From the sequence record NC_019505.1: a stretch of DNA of 64,000 bases; one strand, written 5' to 3'. Below are positions 2,925-38,215 of the stretch, one piece after another (the first letter of the stretch is position 1; every line of letters begins with the position of its first letter). Position numbers and translations under genes: made by a program. The stretch is from Escherichia phage wV7. Under the pieces are notes generated by a model. The model saw only the letters and a program-made list of their open reading frames with translations, had not been told where the DNA came from and searched no databases.

Positions 2925-4125
2925 ATTTTGTAATAATGTCAAACTGTTCTTTAAAGCAGAAGCTTGAATCTTGATGCTGATACAAAAATTCATATGCTTT
3001 TTCTCGCTCACGGTCATAAAGAGCTCGGTCAGATGACAGTTCTTTAATACGTTCAAACGTTGATTCCATATCATTTTCATCAAACCAAACGATACCGCTA
3101 TCATGCGAAATTAGCGGAGTATTATCAACACGGAATTTTAAATTTTCGCCAGTAGATTTCCAAAATACCGGAATTGTTCCACATGCACCAAGCTCGAGAT
3201 GAGTATATTCTAAAGAACGCTGTAGATATTTTTTATCCAACTTACTCAGCTGATAACCAAATCCGGATTTACTCATGCGTTCAAGCATTTCGCTATTTAC
3301 ATAACGGTCAAGAATTTGCGTTGGCAAATTAGGAGCAATTTTAATTTGGTCTACTTGATGAAGACGATAATACTCGTATGGAATTCCTTTTTCTTTAATA
3401 GGAATGAACGCTGGAGAACGTTCCAGACCTTCCATAATAGTACTTAGTCCTGCAGGTTTAAGATGTTTTTCGTGAAAATCAAACATCTGATAAAAACCTT
3501 TCCATGTAGTCGTACGACCAATCCAACGGTTGATATTCATGTTAATTTCAGAAACATCTTTCCAGTAGGTTGATCGAACCTTCGCAATATCCATAGGAGG
3601 CTGAAAGTTGTATACGGTCGGTGCTTCTTCAATATCATCAAACAGAGAAACTGTTTCTGGATACCATTCTTTCATCAGAACTTTATTAAAATCGCCATTA
3701 TCAGAATGACTAAAAATAACATCAGCTCGACGAACAGTTTCTTCTAATCCCAAATTTCGGCGCAAAGAAAGAGAAGAATGGTCATGTTGATAAACTACAA
3801 CACGAACCGAAGGTTTAATGTTATCAATAATTTTTTTATAGTTATTAATGGTGTCTTCTTCTACTGAAGTAGCAGGAACTGAATTGATAATTAGAATATC
3901 ACAATCATTTACCAGCTTAAGTGTTTTATCGTATTCTTTTGCCAATAAAACTGGAATTGAAAATGACTTATAATCATGCGCGCAATTACGAGTAAATGAT
4001 TTATCTTTAGCATAAACCAAAGTTACTTCATGACCATTTTTAATAAACCAATCACGCTGCTCAAGAGAAAATTTAGTTACACCGCAACCTTCAAGACCTC
4101 GAGCCATAAAAATACATACTTTCAT
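2923..4125 (-). CDS. agt: DNA alpha-glucosyltransferase
   Basis: 400 aa; near-identical to recalled T4 alpha-gt (MxxCIFMARGLEGCGVTKFSLEQRDWF..., C-terminal FKEQFDIITK). Confidence 0.9.
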   Translation of the reverse strand: MKVCIFMARGLEGCGVTKFSLEQRDWFIKNGHEVTLVYAKDKSFTRNCAHDYKSFSIPVLLAKEYDKTLKLVNDCDILIINSVPATSVEEDTINNYKKIIDNIKPSVRVVVYQHDHSSLSLRRNLGLEETVRRADVIFSHSDNGDFNKVLMKEWYPETVSLFDDIEEAPTVYNFQPPMDIAKVRSTYWKDVSEINMNINRWIGRTTTWKGFYQMFDFHEKHLKPAGLSTIMEGLERSPAFIPIKEKGIPYEYYRLHQVDQIKIAPNLPTQILDRYVNSEMLERMSKSGFGYQLSKLDKKYLQRSLEYTHLELGACGTIPVFWKSTGENLKFRVDNTPLISHDSGIVWFDENDMESTFERIKELSSDRALYDREREKAYEFLYQHQDSSFCFKEQFDIITK

Positions 4126-31426: not shown

Positions 31427-32395
<969 letters not shown>

Positions 32396-32414
<19 letters not shown>

Positions 32415-32884
32415 TCAGTGATAAAGTTATTTAAATTTTGAGTATATTTCTTTTCATCAAAAATCTTTTGTTGTCTGCGTAGCCGCCATGGCATTTCAAT
32501 GAACGTGTACCATATCCCAGATAATATTGCTGCAGTAAAAATATTAACAAGTATGGTTAAAAGAATCCAATCTCCTATTCTGTCCATTGGATTTTTTATA
32601 AAAAAGTAAAATACGAATGATGTCACAGGAAGACTAATAATATACCACAGAATCATAATTTTATCTGTGAACCAATCAGCGTTCGTTAACTTAGCGCGAC
32701 CATTATGAATACACACGAATTTATCATCTGTTATAATAGATGGCTTAGCTGCTTGATATCCCATTCTAAACTCCCTAATCAACAAATTTTTCATATCTTC
32801 GGAACAACCATTCCAGTCAACTCTATCAACTGAAATGCCATCATCCCCATCATCTAAATCATACCAGCGAGTTTTTAAAATCAT
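32396..32884 (-). CDS. Membrane protein
   Basis: 162 aa with two or three TM helices. Confidence 0.5.
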
Positions 32885-33255
32885 TTAATTTTCCTACAAT
32901 CACTCACAAACTCTTCCATTGATTCTTTTTCAATATAAGACATGTAGCTATTATATTCCTTTAATTGTATTTTGTAATCCTTTTTTCTTTGCCAATTTAT
33001 TTTAAAATTATCATAATGAAAATATAACATTGTACCAAAGAATGAAAATAATGAAATCGCTATAGTATAATGAAGTTCACTCCAAACTTCTATTATATCT
33101 ATTATACCGCTGACGTTACTACGGATGTTTAAAATAAGACAGTCAATTAACAATCCAAAAAGACTACCCGCAAGAGCTGTAGCCAACGCTACAGCAAAAA
33201 TTAAAAATGACTCAGGAAGAGAATATTTGACTTTATTTAGTTTTGGCTTTTGCAT
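32881..33255 (-). CDS. Membrane protein
   Basis: 124 aa with two TM helices. Confidence 0.5.
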   Translation of the reverse strand: MQKPKLNKVKYSLPESFLIFAVALATALAGSLFGLLIDCLILNIRSNVSGIIDIIEVWSELHYTIAISLFSFFGTMLYFHYDNFKINWQRKKDYKIQLKEYNSYMSYIEKESMEEFVSDCRKIK

Positions 33256-33650
33256 CGTGATTCCTTAACAAATTTCATAATTTCATCAAATTCATGCGCA
33301 GCAAGTTTAAGCTGATGTTCCTTTTTAATCTTTTTACACTGAGCTTTCCAATCACGTACACGTTTACGATAGTGTCTTCCTTGATACCAATATCCTATCC
33401 AATTTATAGGTACTAATAAAAGCGGAACTACCAACGGAAGAATTAGTGTTGCTCCAAATATTGCACCAGATTCAATATCAGTCATAACGTCTATAACCAT
33501 TCCAGCAATCACCAGAATCACAAATGATACAACTACCACAGGACCTATTAACACATCAGTAGAAATTATCTGACGCTTTAATTCATACTTCAACGGTTTA
33601 CTTGGAAGGTATAGTGATGGTTTTGACATATTCTCTACATTCCTTAACAA
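33237..33650 (-). CDS. Membrane protein
   Basis: 137 aa with two TM helices. Confidence 0.5.
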   Translation of the reverse strand: MLRNVENMSKPSLYLPSKPLKYELKRQIISTDVLIGPVVVVSFVILVIAGMVIDVMTDIESGAIFGATLILPLVVPLLLVPINWIGYWYQGRHYRKRVRDWKAQCKKIKKEHQLKLAAHEFDEIMKFVKESRCKSQN

Positions 33651-34206
33651 ATTTTTCTAATAATAAATCGCTTTCAAAATTGGGATTTTCTACGAATTTA
33701 TCAAAAAGATCATCGACAATAGTTAAGATATTCTTTTTACTAAGAATACGTTTATTTTCATATTTTGTTTCAGAGTCAACTATAAGAGTAAAGAAATATT
33801 TCTTGCCCTGAAATTTTACAGTAGTATCAATATAGAATAAATTTGACTTTTGTAAATTACGTTTAAACCATGCATCACTTAAACTATAAACGCCAAGATA
33901 ATCATAATCGTCGTTTAAATAACAGACCGTCCATTCAGGAGAAACAAAATCAGTAAATTCAACGTCAAAATCGCATGTTAATAAATGAATTGATTCAATA
34001 CTGTTAATAAGTATTCCAGGACGTATTAAAGACTTTTTACCTCTAGAAAATCTTCCAGAAAGATTTTCAACAGTTTCATATGAAGAACCCCAATAATAAT
34101 TACGTCCTTCTGCCATACGTTTAAGAGCATTTAATAATTGGTCTGGAACATCAACCTGTCTTTGGAACTCTTCAAACATTGAATTGAAATCACTTTGCAT
34201 TTTCAT
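33598..34206 (-). CDS. Hypothetical protein
   Basis: 202-aa ORF. Confidence 0.5.
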   Translation of the reverse strand: MKMQSDFNSMFEEFQRQVDVPDQLLNALKRMAEGRNYYWGSSYETVENLSGRFSRGKKSLIRPGILINSIESIHLLTCDFDVEFTDFVSPEWTVCYLNDDYDYLGVYSLSDAWFKRNLQKSNLFYIDTTVKFQGKKYFFTLIVDSETKYENKRILSKKNILTIVDDLFDKFVENPNFESDLLLEKFVKECREYVKTITIPSK

Positions 34207-34247: not shown

Positions 34248-34841
34248 TTATTTCAGAGAATTAATATATTCCTGAACATCGGCAGAGGTAGTTTCAACCC
34301 CAGAAATATTACCATTAAAGGTTTCAACTCGAGCAAGAGTATCTTCAATATCAACCTTAGTCAGTGCTGCAATTTCAACTACATCATCAGCAGTACTAAT
34401 TCCAAGGGCATTCGCGGCGCGAGTTTCACGGATATATTCCAATTTAACTGCAAGTTCTTGGCGAGCATCATCTAACTCAACTACTTTCTTGGCAATTTCA
34501 ATTCGCATTTCAGCATAACCATCAGCTTTAGTAGTCAACTGCTCAGCTGTTCGACGATATAGTAAACCGAGTTTAGCATGCATTGTTACATCTTGACCTT
34601 CAGAAAGGAGCTTGCGAATTTCACGCTCTTTTGATTCGGCCTGCTTATTCTTTTCGACAATAAGTTCACGAATACGCTTTTCTTCATTAATAGATTTAAC
34701 AGAAGCAGTTTTTAGATCTTTAATTTTATCAAGCAATTTTGCTGCTGCGGCAGTATACTGCTCTTCAACAGATAGATTTTTAGCCATAGCAGAACCAAGT
34801 TTAGTGCGAATAAACTCAACAATTTTTTTCAGTGTGTTCAT
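34248..34841 (-). CDS. Coiled-coil protein (weak PspA/IM30-like resemblance)
   Basis: 197 aa, charged heptad-rich; resemblance to PspA is compositional only. Confidence 0.5.
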
Positions 34842-34884
34842 AGTATTTCCTTAGGTTGATTAGAAATTAAAATCTGCAGAAGAA

Positions 34885-35418
34885 TTATATCATGCTACTT
34901 AAGAGATGTAAACTATTTTTAATTTTACAAATTCGTTCAGCTTCTTCAACAGCGGCAGTGATAATGCTTTTAGCTATAGGAGTACTAATATTAGTAGCTT
35001 TTACACTTAACACGATTTCTTTATCTTTACCAGGCCAACCCCACGATTTTTCACCATGAGTGCCTTTAATTACAGCAGACACCTCAAGTGAGCATCCATT
35101 ATCGCATGTTTTTACATTAACAACCCAAGTGTCACTTTTCTCAACCGGTTTATCCCAGTAAATATTAAGAATACGTGGGACATCAAATTTAGCAGGGCAA
35201 ATCTTAACCGTAAGACCTTCGCTTTCTAGCCAATTAATAAGAGGGCGTTCATACATGCGGCGATGTGGGCTTTGAACTCGACAAGCTTTGTACCCATTGC
35301 TTGCGGCTTCACTAAGCTCTTCTAATACATGCTTTTGCATTATTGATAAGATACCATCAAAAGATTTTTCGGAAGTTTCATTCAGTTCGGTATAAAGAGA
35401 CATAACAGTTTTCCTCAA
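34885..35418 (-). CDS. Hypothetical protein
   Basis: 177-aa ORF. Confidence 0.5.
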   Translation of the reverse strand: MRKTVMSLYTELNETSEKSFDGILSIMQKHVLEELSEAASNGYKACRVQSPHRRMYERPLINWLESEGLTVKICPAKFDVPRILNIYWDKPVEKSDTWVVNVKTCDNGCSLEVSAVIKGTHGEKSWGWPGKDKEIVLSVKATNISTPIAKSIITAAVEEAERICKIKNSLHLLSSMI

Positions 35419-35926: not shown

Positions 35927-35960
35927 ACCAAAAAGCCCCAACCTTTCGGCTAGGGCTAAG
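35927..35960. repeat. Direct repeat copy 1 flanking internal-protein cassette
   Basis: ACCAAAAAGCCCCAACCTTTCGG shared exactly with 36486-36508; 2-3 mismatches in the following 11 nt. Confidence 0.7.
35930..35955 (-). terminator. Rho-independent terminator downstream of cassette internal-protein gene (repeat copy 1)
   Basis: Minus RNA CCCUAGCC-GAAA-GGUUGGGG followed by CUUUUU. Confidence 0.6.
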
Positions 35961-35964
35961 AATG

Positions 35965-36438
35965 TTATTTGATTTGTTTAGCAGACCAAATGCGGTCTTT
36001 AATAATTTTTTGGATGTCTTCAACATACTCAAGAGAGTGAGCATGTGGATTATCTTTGAAACTATAAGCACGAGCTAGTTTTTGGCCTTCAGTTTTGATT
36101 ACTAAAAGCTCTTTAAGGATAGCTTCATATTTGGAGATAATTCCTTTAACAATATTTTTCTCTTGTGCGACTTTAGGATCTGCTTTAGGAGCAGGTTTAC
36201 CCGAAGCCTTTGCAAAAGCAGCGCCAGTAGCAACTAAACTTTTCCAGGCCATACTAACTGCATTTCCCGTAAATCCTTCCGCTTTCATGTCGCGTGCGAA
36301 CTGGAATCGCGATTCATCAGAAGCATCTTTATAAGAATATTTACCCGCTGCAATGGCTGCTTTTGCGACAGCTTGAATTTCGGTGCTAGATGCTTCATTT
36401 AACACCGCTTCATTTAAAAATTGAGTATATGATTTCAT
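35965..36438 (-). CDS. Internal head protein-like, with capsid targeting sequence (cassette gene)
   Basis: 157 aa; N-terminus MKSYTQFLNEAV is a leader variant; minus-strand TATAAATA 40 nt upstream; flanked by near-identical terminator repeats. Confidence 0.65.
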   Translation of the reverse strand: MKSYTQFLNEAVLNEASSTEIQAVAKAAIAAGKYSYKDASDESRFQFARDMKAEGFTGNAVSMAWKSLVATGAAFAKASGKPAPKADPKVAQEKNIVKGIISKYEAILKELLVIKTEGQKLARAYSFKDNPHAHSLEYVEDIQKIIKDRIWSAKQIK

Positions 36439-36486: not shown

Positions 36487-36519
36487 CCAAAAAGCCCCAA
36501 CCTTTCGGTCGGGGCTAAG
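36486..36519. repeat. Direct repeat copy 2 flanking internal-protein cassette
   Basis: Same 23-nt core as 35927-35949. Confidence 0.7.
36489..36514 (-). terminator. Rho-independent terminator upstream of cassette internal-protein gene (repeat copy 2)
   Basis: Minus RNA CCCCGACC-GAAA-GGUUGGGG followed by CUUUUU. Confidence 0.6.
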
Positions 36520-37194: not shown

Positions 37195-37270
37195 TGGTCG
37201 AGGCAGTAGGGATCGAACCTACGACCTAGGACTTAGAAGGTCCTTGCTCTTCCTTCTGAGCTATGCCCCG
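37195..37270 (-). tRNA. tRNA-Arg (anticodon UCU), CCA encoded
   Basis: Hand-folded cloverleaf: acceptor CGGGGCA/TGCCTCG, anticodon loop CTTCTAA, T-loop TTCGATC. Confidence 0.8.
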
Positions 37271-37274
37271 TAAT

Positions 37275-37350
37275 TGGGGTGACCGATGGGAGTCGAACCC
37301 ATGACTACGAGAATCACAATCTCGAGTTCTACCAACTGAACTACGGTCAC
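37275..37350 (-). tRNA. tRNA-His (anticodon GUG), CCA encoded
   Basis: Acceptor GTGACCG/CGGTCAC, anticodon stem CGAGA/TCTCG with loop TTGTGAT, discriminator C; no encoded G-1. Confidence 0.7.
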
Positions 37351-37464
37351 ATTAATACCTACTCCAACAATCAAGATGTCTTCACACGAAATTAAGAGAA
37401 GAGTGATCAGTTCAACCCCTATAATCGCGTCAAGTAGATATTAATGTGACAGTTGTCACAAATT

Positions 37465-37539
37465 TGGCGGACGTGATAGGATTCGAACCTATAACCAATC
37501 GCTTAACAGGCGATCGCTCTGCCATTGAGCTACACATCC
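37465..37539 (-). tRNA. tRNA-Asn (anticodon GUU), CCA encoded
   Basis: Acceptor GGATGTG/CACGTCC (one G-U), anticodon loop CTGTTAA, T-loop TTCGAAT. Confidence 0.75.
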
Positions 37540-37543
37540 AAAT

Positions 37544-37630
37544 TGGTGGGGAGTGGTGGAGTCGAACCACCCGAGTCGCAATGACAATGAATTTACAGTC
37601 CACACCGCTACCTCTACGGGATAACTCCCC
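37544..37630 (-). tRNA. tRNA-Tyr (anticodon GUA), long variable arm, CCA encoded
   Basis: Acceptor GGGGAGT/ACTCCCC, anticodon loop CTGTAAA, variable-arm hairpin GTC-ATTGC-GAC, T-loop TTCGACT. Confidence 0.7.
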
Positions 37631-37642
37631 TAATTCATAATT

Positions 37643-37717
37643 TGGTGGCCCTGGGTGGAATTGAACCACCATCTGGCGATTATGAGTCGCTTGCTTGAAC
37701 CTTCCAGCTACAGGGCC
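37643..37717 (-). tRNA. tRNA with CAU anticodon (Met, or Ile by T4 analogy), CCA encoded
   Basis: Acceptor GGCCCTG/CAGGGCC, anticodon loop CTCATAA, T-loop TTCAATT. Confidence 0.75.
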
Positions 37718-37718
37718 T

Positions 37719-37794
37719 TGGTGCTGATTGACGGAATCGAACCGCCGACCTTCTCATTACAAGTGAGTTGCTCTACCTACTGAGCTAAATCAGC
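37719..37794 (-). tRNA. tRNA-Thr (anticodon UGU), CCA encoded
   Basis: Acceptor GCTGATT/AATCAGC, anticodon loop CTTGTAA, T-loop TTCGATT. Confidence 0.8.
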
Positions 37795-37799
37795 AAAAC

Positions 37800-37889
37800 T
37801 GGCGGAGGTGATAGGATTCGAACCTATGAATCGCCGGAGCGACTGCCGGTTTTCAAGACCGGTGCATTCAACCACTCTGCCACACCTCC
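37800..37889 (-). tRNA. tRNA-Ser (anticodon UGA), long variable arm, CCA encoded
   Basis: Acceptor GGAGGTG/CACCTCC, anticodon loop CTTGAAA, long variable arm, T-loop TTCGAAT. Confidence 0.8.
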
Positions 37890-37891
37890 AG

Positions 37892-37965
37892 TCTCCATAC
37901 AAGGATTTGAACCTTGGACCTCCTGATCCCAAATCAGGCGCTCTACCAAACTGAGCTACACGGAG
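37892..37965 (-). tRNA. tRNA-Pro (anticodon UGG), CCA not encoded
   Basis: Acceptor CTCCGTG/TATGGAG (two G-U), anticodon loop TTTGGGA, T-loop TTCAAAT; followed by CT then next tRNA. Confidence 0.75.
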
Positions 37966-37975
37966 TAAATTAAAT

Positions 37976-38049
<74 letters not shown>

Positions 38050-38054
38050 AAATT

Positions 38055-38141
38055 TGGTGCGAGAAGTGGGACTCGAACCCACAAGGAAATCATTCCGCAG
38101 CATTTTAAGTGCTGTGCCTTTACCAATTTGACCATTCTCGC
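38055..38141 (-). tRNA. tRNA-Leu (anticodon UAA), long variable arm, CCA encoded
   Basis: Acceptor GCGAGAA/TTCTCGC, anticodon stem CAGCA/TGCTG with loop CTTAAAA, T-loop TTCGAGT. Confidence 0.8.
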
Positions 38142-38142
38142 G

Positions 38143-38215
38143 CTGGGAATAAAGGACTCGAACCTTTGCATCTAGCAGTCAAAGTGCTATGCCTTACCAA
38201 CTTGGCTAATTCCCA
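38143..38215 (-). tRNA. tRNA-Gln (anticodon UUG), CCA not encoded
   Basis: Acceptor TGGGAAT/ATTCCCA, anticodon stem TAGCA/TGCTA with loop CTTTGAC, T-loop TTCGAGT; abuts tRNA-Leu. Confidence 0.8.

Follow-up and report, generated by a model that had tools for sequence, protein, structure and literature searches.

Phage T4 gene e.6 as a very probable divergent member of the PspA/IM30 (bacterial ESCRT-III) family

Introduction

Among lytic phages T4 serves as the reference, yet roughly half of its genes have no assigned function. Between the lysozyme gene e and the tRNA cluster of T4-type genomes lies e.6, a gene for a small helical protein, and the question addressed here is where this protein belongs and what it may do for the phage. 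The DNA analysed is a stretch of 64,000 nucleotides from Escherichia phage wV7 (NC_019505.1), hereafter the window. It is a Tequatrovirus (T4-type) genome; over 3.5 kb, it shows 100% identity with E. coli O157 typing phage 7 and 99.7% identity with RB51 and RB68. A sequence-only reading of the window had likened the e.6 product to PspA/IM30 proteins, a resemblance that it held to be compositional only. Placement in the PspA/Vipp1/ESCRT-III superfamily gives T4 e.6 a concrete hypothesis open to inexpensive testing, that of a virus with its own copy of a host membrane-stress effector.

The link between e.6 and PspA is already known from one sentence in a 2021 genome announcement, in which gp163 of Klebsiella phage Metamorpho, a homologue of T4 e.6, matches E. 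coli PspA (4WHE) at 99.9% in HHpred (Groover et al. 2021, PMC7862958). Metamorpho belongs to a different genus (Jiaodavirus) from the window phage; its gp163 (MT701588) and the window protein have 59% identity across all 197 residues, and it occupies the same tRNA-to-e block. The GenBank entry of gp163 still reads 'hypothetical protein'. One Kuttervirus record labels its own copy 'PspA/IM30 family protein', an Acinetobacter phage protein bears the same label in BFVD, and a pspA-like gene has been mentioned for huge gut phages. Two surveys of how PSP/ESCRT-III systems evolved make no mention of members encoded by phages. In the literature on phage-encoded PspA/ESCRT-III proteins and on T4 e.6, we found no functional study of membrane binding, polymerisation or phenotype. 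What can be added to the known homology is the re-annotation of e.6 and the prompting of experiments.

The database records for e.6 in Tequatrovirus read 'hypothetical' or, misleadingly, 'host specificity protein'. Many orthologues carry the fuller form 'host specificity protein (ACLAME 1259)' (e.g. OR539217, 4001-4594; UniProt A0A5Q2F7S5), and one homologue from a Klebsiella phage goes under 'Tail completion protein'. Such names are at odds with the PspA homology and early expression described below, and look like propagated misannotations.

The e.6 gene and its expression signals

The reading frame runs from ATG to TAA on the minus strand (Table 1), a strand that the sequence-only reading had left unstated. 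Its product and that of T4 e.6 (msp3 in the old record L13089; UniProt P39224) are 100% identical, and by this identity the gene is the ortholog of T4 e.6. The sequence-only reading had placed it in the block between e and the tRNAs, correctly, as lysozyme gene e lies at 31427-31921 and 11 tRNA genes lie at 37195-38215.

The promoter assigned to e.6 scores 11/12, with the TG of an extended -10 in addition, and is the top sigma-70-type match within the surrounding 5 kb. An A-rich tract upstream of it completes the look of a T4 early promoter, and the T4 record L13089 annotates -35 and -10 signals at the same site before msp3. Beyond the stop codon stands a hairpin whose T-poor tail suggests either an RNA-stabilising hairpin or a weak terminator. 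As read from these signals, e.6 is a compact expression unit with a putative early promoter of its own. In a time-resolved omics study, T4 e.6 (T4p129, P39224) is classed as 'early RNA, middle protein' (PMC9697503 supplement); the listing of both RNA and protein indicates that the gene is transcribed and translated.

Table 1. Coordinates in the window of gene e.6, its expression signals and the helices predicted for its product
Feature	Coordinates	Strand	Basis
CDS e.6, 197 aa, divergent PspA/IM30 (bacterial ESCRT-III) family, very probably	34248..34841	-	ORF, T4 e.6 identity, PHROG 1203, PspA/Vipp1 homology
Putative T4-early-type sigma-70 promoter, GTTTACA, 17 nt, TGATATAAT	34884..34912	-	promoter match; L13089 signals
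Shine-Dalgarno AAGGA, 6 nt before e.6 ATG	34848..34852	-	read from sequence
Hairpin GGGGC-UUCG-GCCCC, 5 nt past e.6 stop codon	34227..34242	-	sequence; L13089 putative stem_loop after msp3
Predicted amphipathic helix alpha0, residues 2-22, candidate membrane anchor	34776..34838	-	helix in both models; aligns to PspA/Vipp1 residues 1-22
Predicted helix alpha1, residues 25-80, hairpin first arm	34602..34769	-	pLDDT about 77-98
Predicted helix alpha2/3, residues 86-145, hairpin second arm	34407..34586	-	AlphaFold models
Predicted short helices at alpha4 position, residues 151-173	34323..34391	-	pLDDT 60-83
Predicted C-terminal helix alpha5, residues 186-196	34254..34286	-	AlphaFold model, conservation

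Sequence homology to PspA and Vipp1

Taken singly, the window protein finds little. Its sole match among single-sequence searches is PHROG 1203 ('unknown function'; E 8e-88). Against Pfam it does not reach the gathering threshold of PF04012 and gives no match to this family even at E<=10; it has no match in NCBIfam, and phmmer against the PDB returns nothing beyond coiled-coil noise. A profile of 30 close e.6 homologues (A1) finds Vipp1 in the PDB at E 1-2, which is not significant, though the alignment is collinear (4-142 against 4-144). The comparison of the close-homologue profile with PspA by hhalign is likewise not significant (P 0.012). When searched against 1.84 billion representative proteins, A1 delineates a closed family of 45 clusters, in which the full-length members have about 195-209 residues and the rest are fragments. 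It is the divergent family members from this search that the PspA signal required.

A set of 41 diverse family members (A2) was scanned, each protein singly, against Pfam, where the gathering score of PF04012 (PspA_IM30) is 33.9 bits. Two of them exceed this score, P0068 with 39.0 bits (E 9e-10) and P0066 with 35.1 bits (E 1.4e-8). P0067 and P0069 match PF04012 at E 1e-4, and a fifth, weaker match appears in the batch scan. The four matches that were inspected all begin at residue 2-7 of the protein and at position 2-3 of the Pfam profile (about 6 and about 2, respectively, in P0066 and P0068). An e.6 profile built from T4-like sequences only recruits P0066 (E 3e-21) and P0068 (E 3e-20) over their full length; in BLASTP, e.6 and P0066 are 24.5% identical over 200 aa. 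A transitive chain of homology thus leads from T4-like e.6 through P0066 and P0068 to PspA_IM30.

With A2, the best four hmmsearch matches in the PDB are Vipp1 proteins (E 6e-5 to 3e-4, residues 1-146 against 1-147). Below them come Nostoc Vipp1 and E. coli PspA (4WHE), the latter collinear but at E 1.8. An hhalign comparison of A2 with 80 Enterobacterales PspA sequences plus Synechocystis Vipp1 scores 46.3 (P 1.6e-6, probability 90%, 168 columns from residue 1), and A2 against the PspA-side alignment A3 scores 48.0 (P 6.8e-7, 92%, 170 columns). When the four Pfam-matching members are removed from A2, the score is 40.4 (P 1.6e-5, 79%). The signal is weaker with the 28 T4-like sequences only (28.4, P 0.0017), in an alignment that spans the full length (193 columns). 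The PspA side is shallow, consisting of Enterobacterales PspA at >=78% identity and a single Vipp1, and the probability of the e.6-PspA match is therefore probably understated.

Reversal of either alignment lowers the hhalign score to 18.9 and 19.3 (about 1% probability), and 40 column shuffles of PspA give 12.8 +/- 2.3 with a maximum of 18.2 (maximum probability 0.9%). Circular shifts were not used as a null, since local alignment recovers the unbroken homologous segment from them and the control is invalid. The shuffled alignments retain the composition, so composition fails to explain the PspA signal. The likeness that the sequence-only reading had taken for compositional only is, by these controls, one of homology. 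Profile matches to the superfamily, whose absence the sequence-only reading had named as a refutation, do exist, and the PspA/IM30-like character guessed at earlier is borne out by the PF04012 relatives, by Vipp1 in the PDB, by hhalign, by the Foldseek result given below and by the published HHpred match.

The e.6 family thus aligns with PspA and Vipp1 at the profile level, collinearly from alpha0 to alpha3 or alpha4. In 7 of the 41 family members, the column of e.6 Val25 holds a proline, and hhalign pairs this column with PspA Pro25, at the break between alpha0 and alpha1. Taken together, these results indicate that e.6 very probably shares ancestry with PspA and Vipp1 and, within the PspA/IM30/Vipp1 family (bacterial ESCRT-III), is a strongly diverged member that phages encode as a stand-alone gene.

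Predicted structure of the e.6 protein

Pro, Cys and Trp are absent from the protein, as are hydrophobic segments; 34% of its residues are charged and about 85% are helical in the AlphaFold models, so that the helical, charged character noticed earlier holds. The model computed from A2 has a pLDDT of 82 and a pTM of 0.66, with values above 90 in the hairpin. Its helices (3-22, 25-80, 86-145, 151-160, 166-173 and 186-196) follow the order alpha0, alpha1, alpha2/3, alpha4, alpha5 of PspA and Vipp1, with the long alpha1 and alpha2-3 hairpin and the short alpha4 and alpha5 after it that are typical of the ESCRT-III fold.

A structure prediction had been proposed as a check on the PspA likeness, and an AlphaFold model of e.6 has Vipp1 for all of its best eight Foldseek matches in the PDB (top E 8.6e-4, probability 1.0). 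These are followed by archaeal CdvB2 filaments, and Synechocystis PspA (7ABK) ranks 37. The predicted fold is that of PspA and Vipp1. At the sequence level, no signal links e.6 to archaeal or eukaryotic ESCRT-III (CdvB2, Snf7), and a Vps4/MIM context is lacking.

The candidate membrane anchor, alpha0, has a hydrophobic moment of 0.45 and a net charge of +3; the moment of E. coli PspA is 0.49, and 6% of shuffled sequences reach the e.6 value. Its predicted amphipathicity is therefore rated as moderate. The most conserved stretch of e.6 comprises the ten residues 89-98, in alpha2/3 beside the hairpin tip; together with the C-terminal helix, it is among the most conserved segments of the protein. 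In ESCRT-III-type polymers, the hairpin tip and the C-terminal helix touch between subunits. The alpha4 region contains 'LARVETF', aligned with 'MARFESF' of PspA. In alpha5, the conserved motif [DE]-[VIL]-x-x-Y-[LI]-x-S-L-K resembles, by eye, the PspA/Vipp1 ending 'V-E-D-E-L-A-A-L-K'.

Comparison with bacterial and phage relatives

E. coli PspA (PF04012, 4WHE) is of similar length (222 aa against 197 for e.6). The two proteins have in common the order of a helix alpha0, predicted to be moderately amphipathic in e.6, a break near residue 25, a long hairpin, short alpha4 and alpha5 helices and a C-terminal [DE]-h-x-x-h-h-x-x-L-K. They are only about 14% identical, however; e.6 stays below the Pfam threshold, its alpha4 region is shorter, the 'AEDP' motif is absent and residue 25 is Val rather than Pro (apart from the relatives mentioned above). 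The genetic setting is also different. The phage gene is carried by a lytic phage under a putative sigma-70 early promoter, with neither pspBC nor pspF as neighbours, whereas pspA is controlled by sigma-54 and PspF. The PspB/PspC partners and the PspF/sigma-54 control that define the proteobacterial Psp system are thus absent from e.6.

Cyanobacterial Vipp1/IM30 (7O3W, 6ZVR, 8QFV) provides the best matches to e.6 in the PDB, by profile (E 6e-5) as well as by Foldseek, collinear over residues 1-146. Vipp1 chains have 266-277 residues, while e.6 ends at the alpha5-like helix and lacks the C-terminal extension past the PspA core (alpha6) that marks the Vipp1/IM30 subfamily. Moreover, the hosts of e.6 phages have no thylakoids.

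Further counterparts of e.6 are the PspA/IM30-labelled proteins of Ackermannviridae (Salmonella phage vB_SentM_sal1 QMV34086; P0066, P0068), which belong to the same phage family of proteins, have the same length and are likewise encoded by stand-alone genes. Unlike e.6, they pass PF04012, and instead of an e-tRNA block their genes occupy a site flanked by uvsX/helicase genes and DNA ligase.

Distribution and genomic context

T4 e.6 is matched by 1098 phage records and the Ackermannviridae branch by 530, with Enterobacterales and Aeromonas as hosts. Its conservation extends to over 1000 genomes of Straboviridae and Ackermannviridae that infect enterobacteria and Aeromonas. The position of the gene varies. 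It is flanked by the tRNA cluster and e in T4-type phages and by nrdD and nrdG in RB43; Aeromonas phage 65 has it after gene 31, and in Ackermannviridae the relative is found between uvsX/helicase genes and DNA ligase. It follows the pattern of a stand-alone gene that moves alone. The RB43 'e.6' is annotated as just 97 aa (3654-3947), and in tblastn the alignment with the window protein (residues 40-197) already begins at position 3465 (3465-3947); probably, the true start lies upstream of the annotated one, or else the gene is broken.

The sequence-only reading had set the protein just after three small membrane proteins. The products of e.2, e.3 and e.4 (32396-33629) do carry transmembrane-like segments. 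However, e.5 (33598-34206), which has no such segment, separates them from e.6, and as transcribed they are downstream of e.6 rather than ahead of it. A link between them and e.6 fails, as these proteins are not conserved beside e.6 in other phages. When all window neighbours were compared by tblastn with the loci of e.6 in RB43, in Aeromonas phage 65 and in two phages of the Ackermannviridae, e.6 alone was matched; in pairwise BLASTP, no match between the neighbour sets fell below E 0.01. The eight neighbouring proteins of e.6 have no Pfam domain, and no PspB, PspC or PspF partner is encoded nearby. The absence of the same neighbours from those loci and of Pfam domains means that the idea of e.2-e.4 as PspB/PspC-like partners is not supported.

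A conserved module of PspA plus membrane partners, made up of e.6 with e.5, e.4, e.3 and e.2, was considered and rejected, these neighbours being absent at the other e.6 loci compared. Small membrane proteins are found near the Ackermannviridae e.6 loci too, unrelated in sequence to the T4 neighbours. On an Ackermannviridae-like contig (7809-10293), for instance, a PF04012-positive relative of e.6 is flanked by small proteins with an N-terminal transmembrane segment (45, 197, 156 and 57 aa). At the same locus, a 197-aa and a 139-aa product are paralogous (E 2e-5) and unrelated to T4 e.2-e.5.

Possible function of e.6

In E. coli, psp induction proceeds via PspF and sigma-54, and T4 puts an end to host transcription shortly after it infects the cell. 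This shut-off would make sigma-54/PspF-dependent psp induction unavailable, which is a plausible reason for a phage to bring its own copy. The best explanation overall, to which we assign a probability of roughly 0.6, is that the e.6 product is an early-made PspA-type membrane stabiliser standing in for the host Psp response.

How such a protein might act can be modelled on what PspA, Vipp1 and LiaH do. Made soon after infection, e.6 would bind the inner membrane on its cytoplasmic side by way of alpha0 and would polymerise like PspA and Vipp1, each contact being made by alpha5 of one subunit and the hairpin tip of a second. The polymer would stabilise or reseal membrane stressed by tail-tube puncture, by superinfection, by holin accumulation or by membrane-attacking host defences, and the proton-motive force would be maintained through this stabilisation. 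We propose this membrane-protective mechanism tentatively, at slightly below even odds. A bolder version, possible but somewhat doubtful, is that e.6 forms a phage ESCRT-III-type polymer which, within minutes of infection, replaces the host in repairing the inner membrane and might blunt membrane-depolarising abortive-infection effectors. If this is true, more than 1000 T4-like and Vi1-like phages would share 'phage shock protein' function as a conserved viral counter-measure.

Other readings of the same homology have to be weighed. The e.6 protein could be a PspA-derived antagonist or decoy that interferes with the host Psp system, either by co-polymerising with PspA and poisoning it or by occupying PspF or PspB/PspC. 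Such a role shares the evidence for homology to PspA, and early expression suits a takeover factor. The Enterobacterales and Aeromonas hosts of the e.6-bearing phages listed all have Psp systems, as far as is known. With only about 14% identity to E. coli PspA in hhalign, however, specific co-assembly or PspF binding becomes less likely, and the silencing of psp induction seems unnecessary in a phage that already blocks host transcription. We regard a decoy as unlikely. The same judgement, an improbable one, falls on a different membrane-remodelling role, such as the setting of lysis timing or lysis inhibition via holin lesions, or the organisation of membrane-bound assembly sites. Proteins of the PspA/Vipp1/ESCRT-III group remodel membranes as well as repair them, as described, for example, in PMC8281802; e.6 stands in a block that adjoins lysozyme e, and the 'middle' class of the T4 e.6 protein implies that it persists into late infection. 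Yet the linkage to e is not conserved, the copies in RB43, Aeromonas phage 65 and Ackermannviridae being in unrelated neighbourhoods, and an early promoter points to an early need.

Least credible of all is that e.6 is a generic charged coiled coil whose PspA likeness is compositional, a reading under which the 'host specificity' and 'tail completion' labels may also be placed. The reversed and column-shuffled controls keep the composition and lose the signal, all e.6-PspA/Vipp1 alignments are collinear and anchored at the N-terminus, two relatives exceed the curated Pfam threshold, and the best eight Foldseek matches belong to one family. A virion or host-range protein is, in addition, at odds with expression that is early rather than late. 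Both 'just a coiled coil' and 'host specificity protein' are essentially excluded by the hhalign controls and the early expression, and a membrane stabiliser of the PspA type is the reading that we retain.

Other features of the e-to-tRNA block

Several further observations concern the surroundings of e.6. Directly upstream of it lies a 177-aa reading frame (34885-35418, minus strand) without Pfam match. At this place, T4 and phage KMB22 have the 111-aa e.7; it is a gene replacement in an otherwise collinear block.

Near the C-terminal end, the products of e.2, e.3, e.4 and e.5 (32396-34206, minus strand) share a motif F-[VI]-x-[ED]-[CS]-R. It takes the form KFVKECREYVK in e.5, KFVKESRCKSQN in e.4, EFVSDCRKIK in e.3 and a form of 10 letters in e.2. 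Three of these four carriers are membrane proteins of a two-TM type. Pairwise BLAST gives their paralogy weak support (E 0.015 for e.2 with e.3, the database being very small).

Further upstream, two near-identical strong terminator hairpins are found on the minus strand (36493-36516 and 35934-35957; AGCCC..CCGAAAGGTTGGGGCT then TTTTTGGTAT). They flank a 157-aa reading frame at 35965-36438, an arrangement suggestive of terminator duplication or of the insertion of a small cassette. The tRNA cluster, also on the minus strand, consists of Arg, His, Asn, Tyr, Met, Thr, Ser, Pro, Gly, Leu and Gln. T4 itself has 8 tRNA genes, fewer than the 11 of the window, and phage KMB22 has the same 11 as the window.
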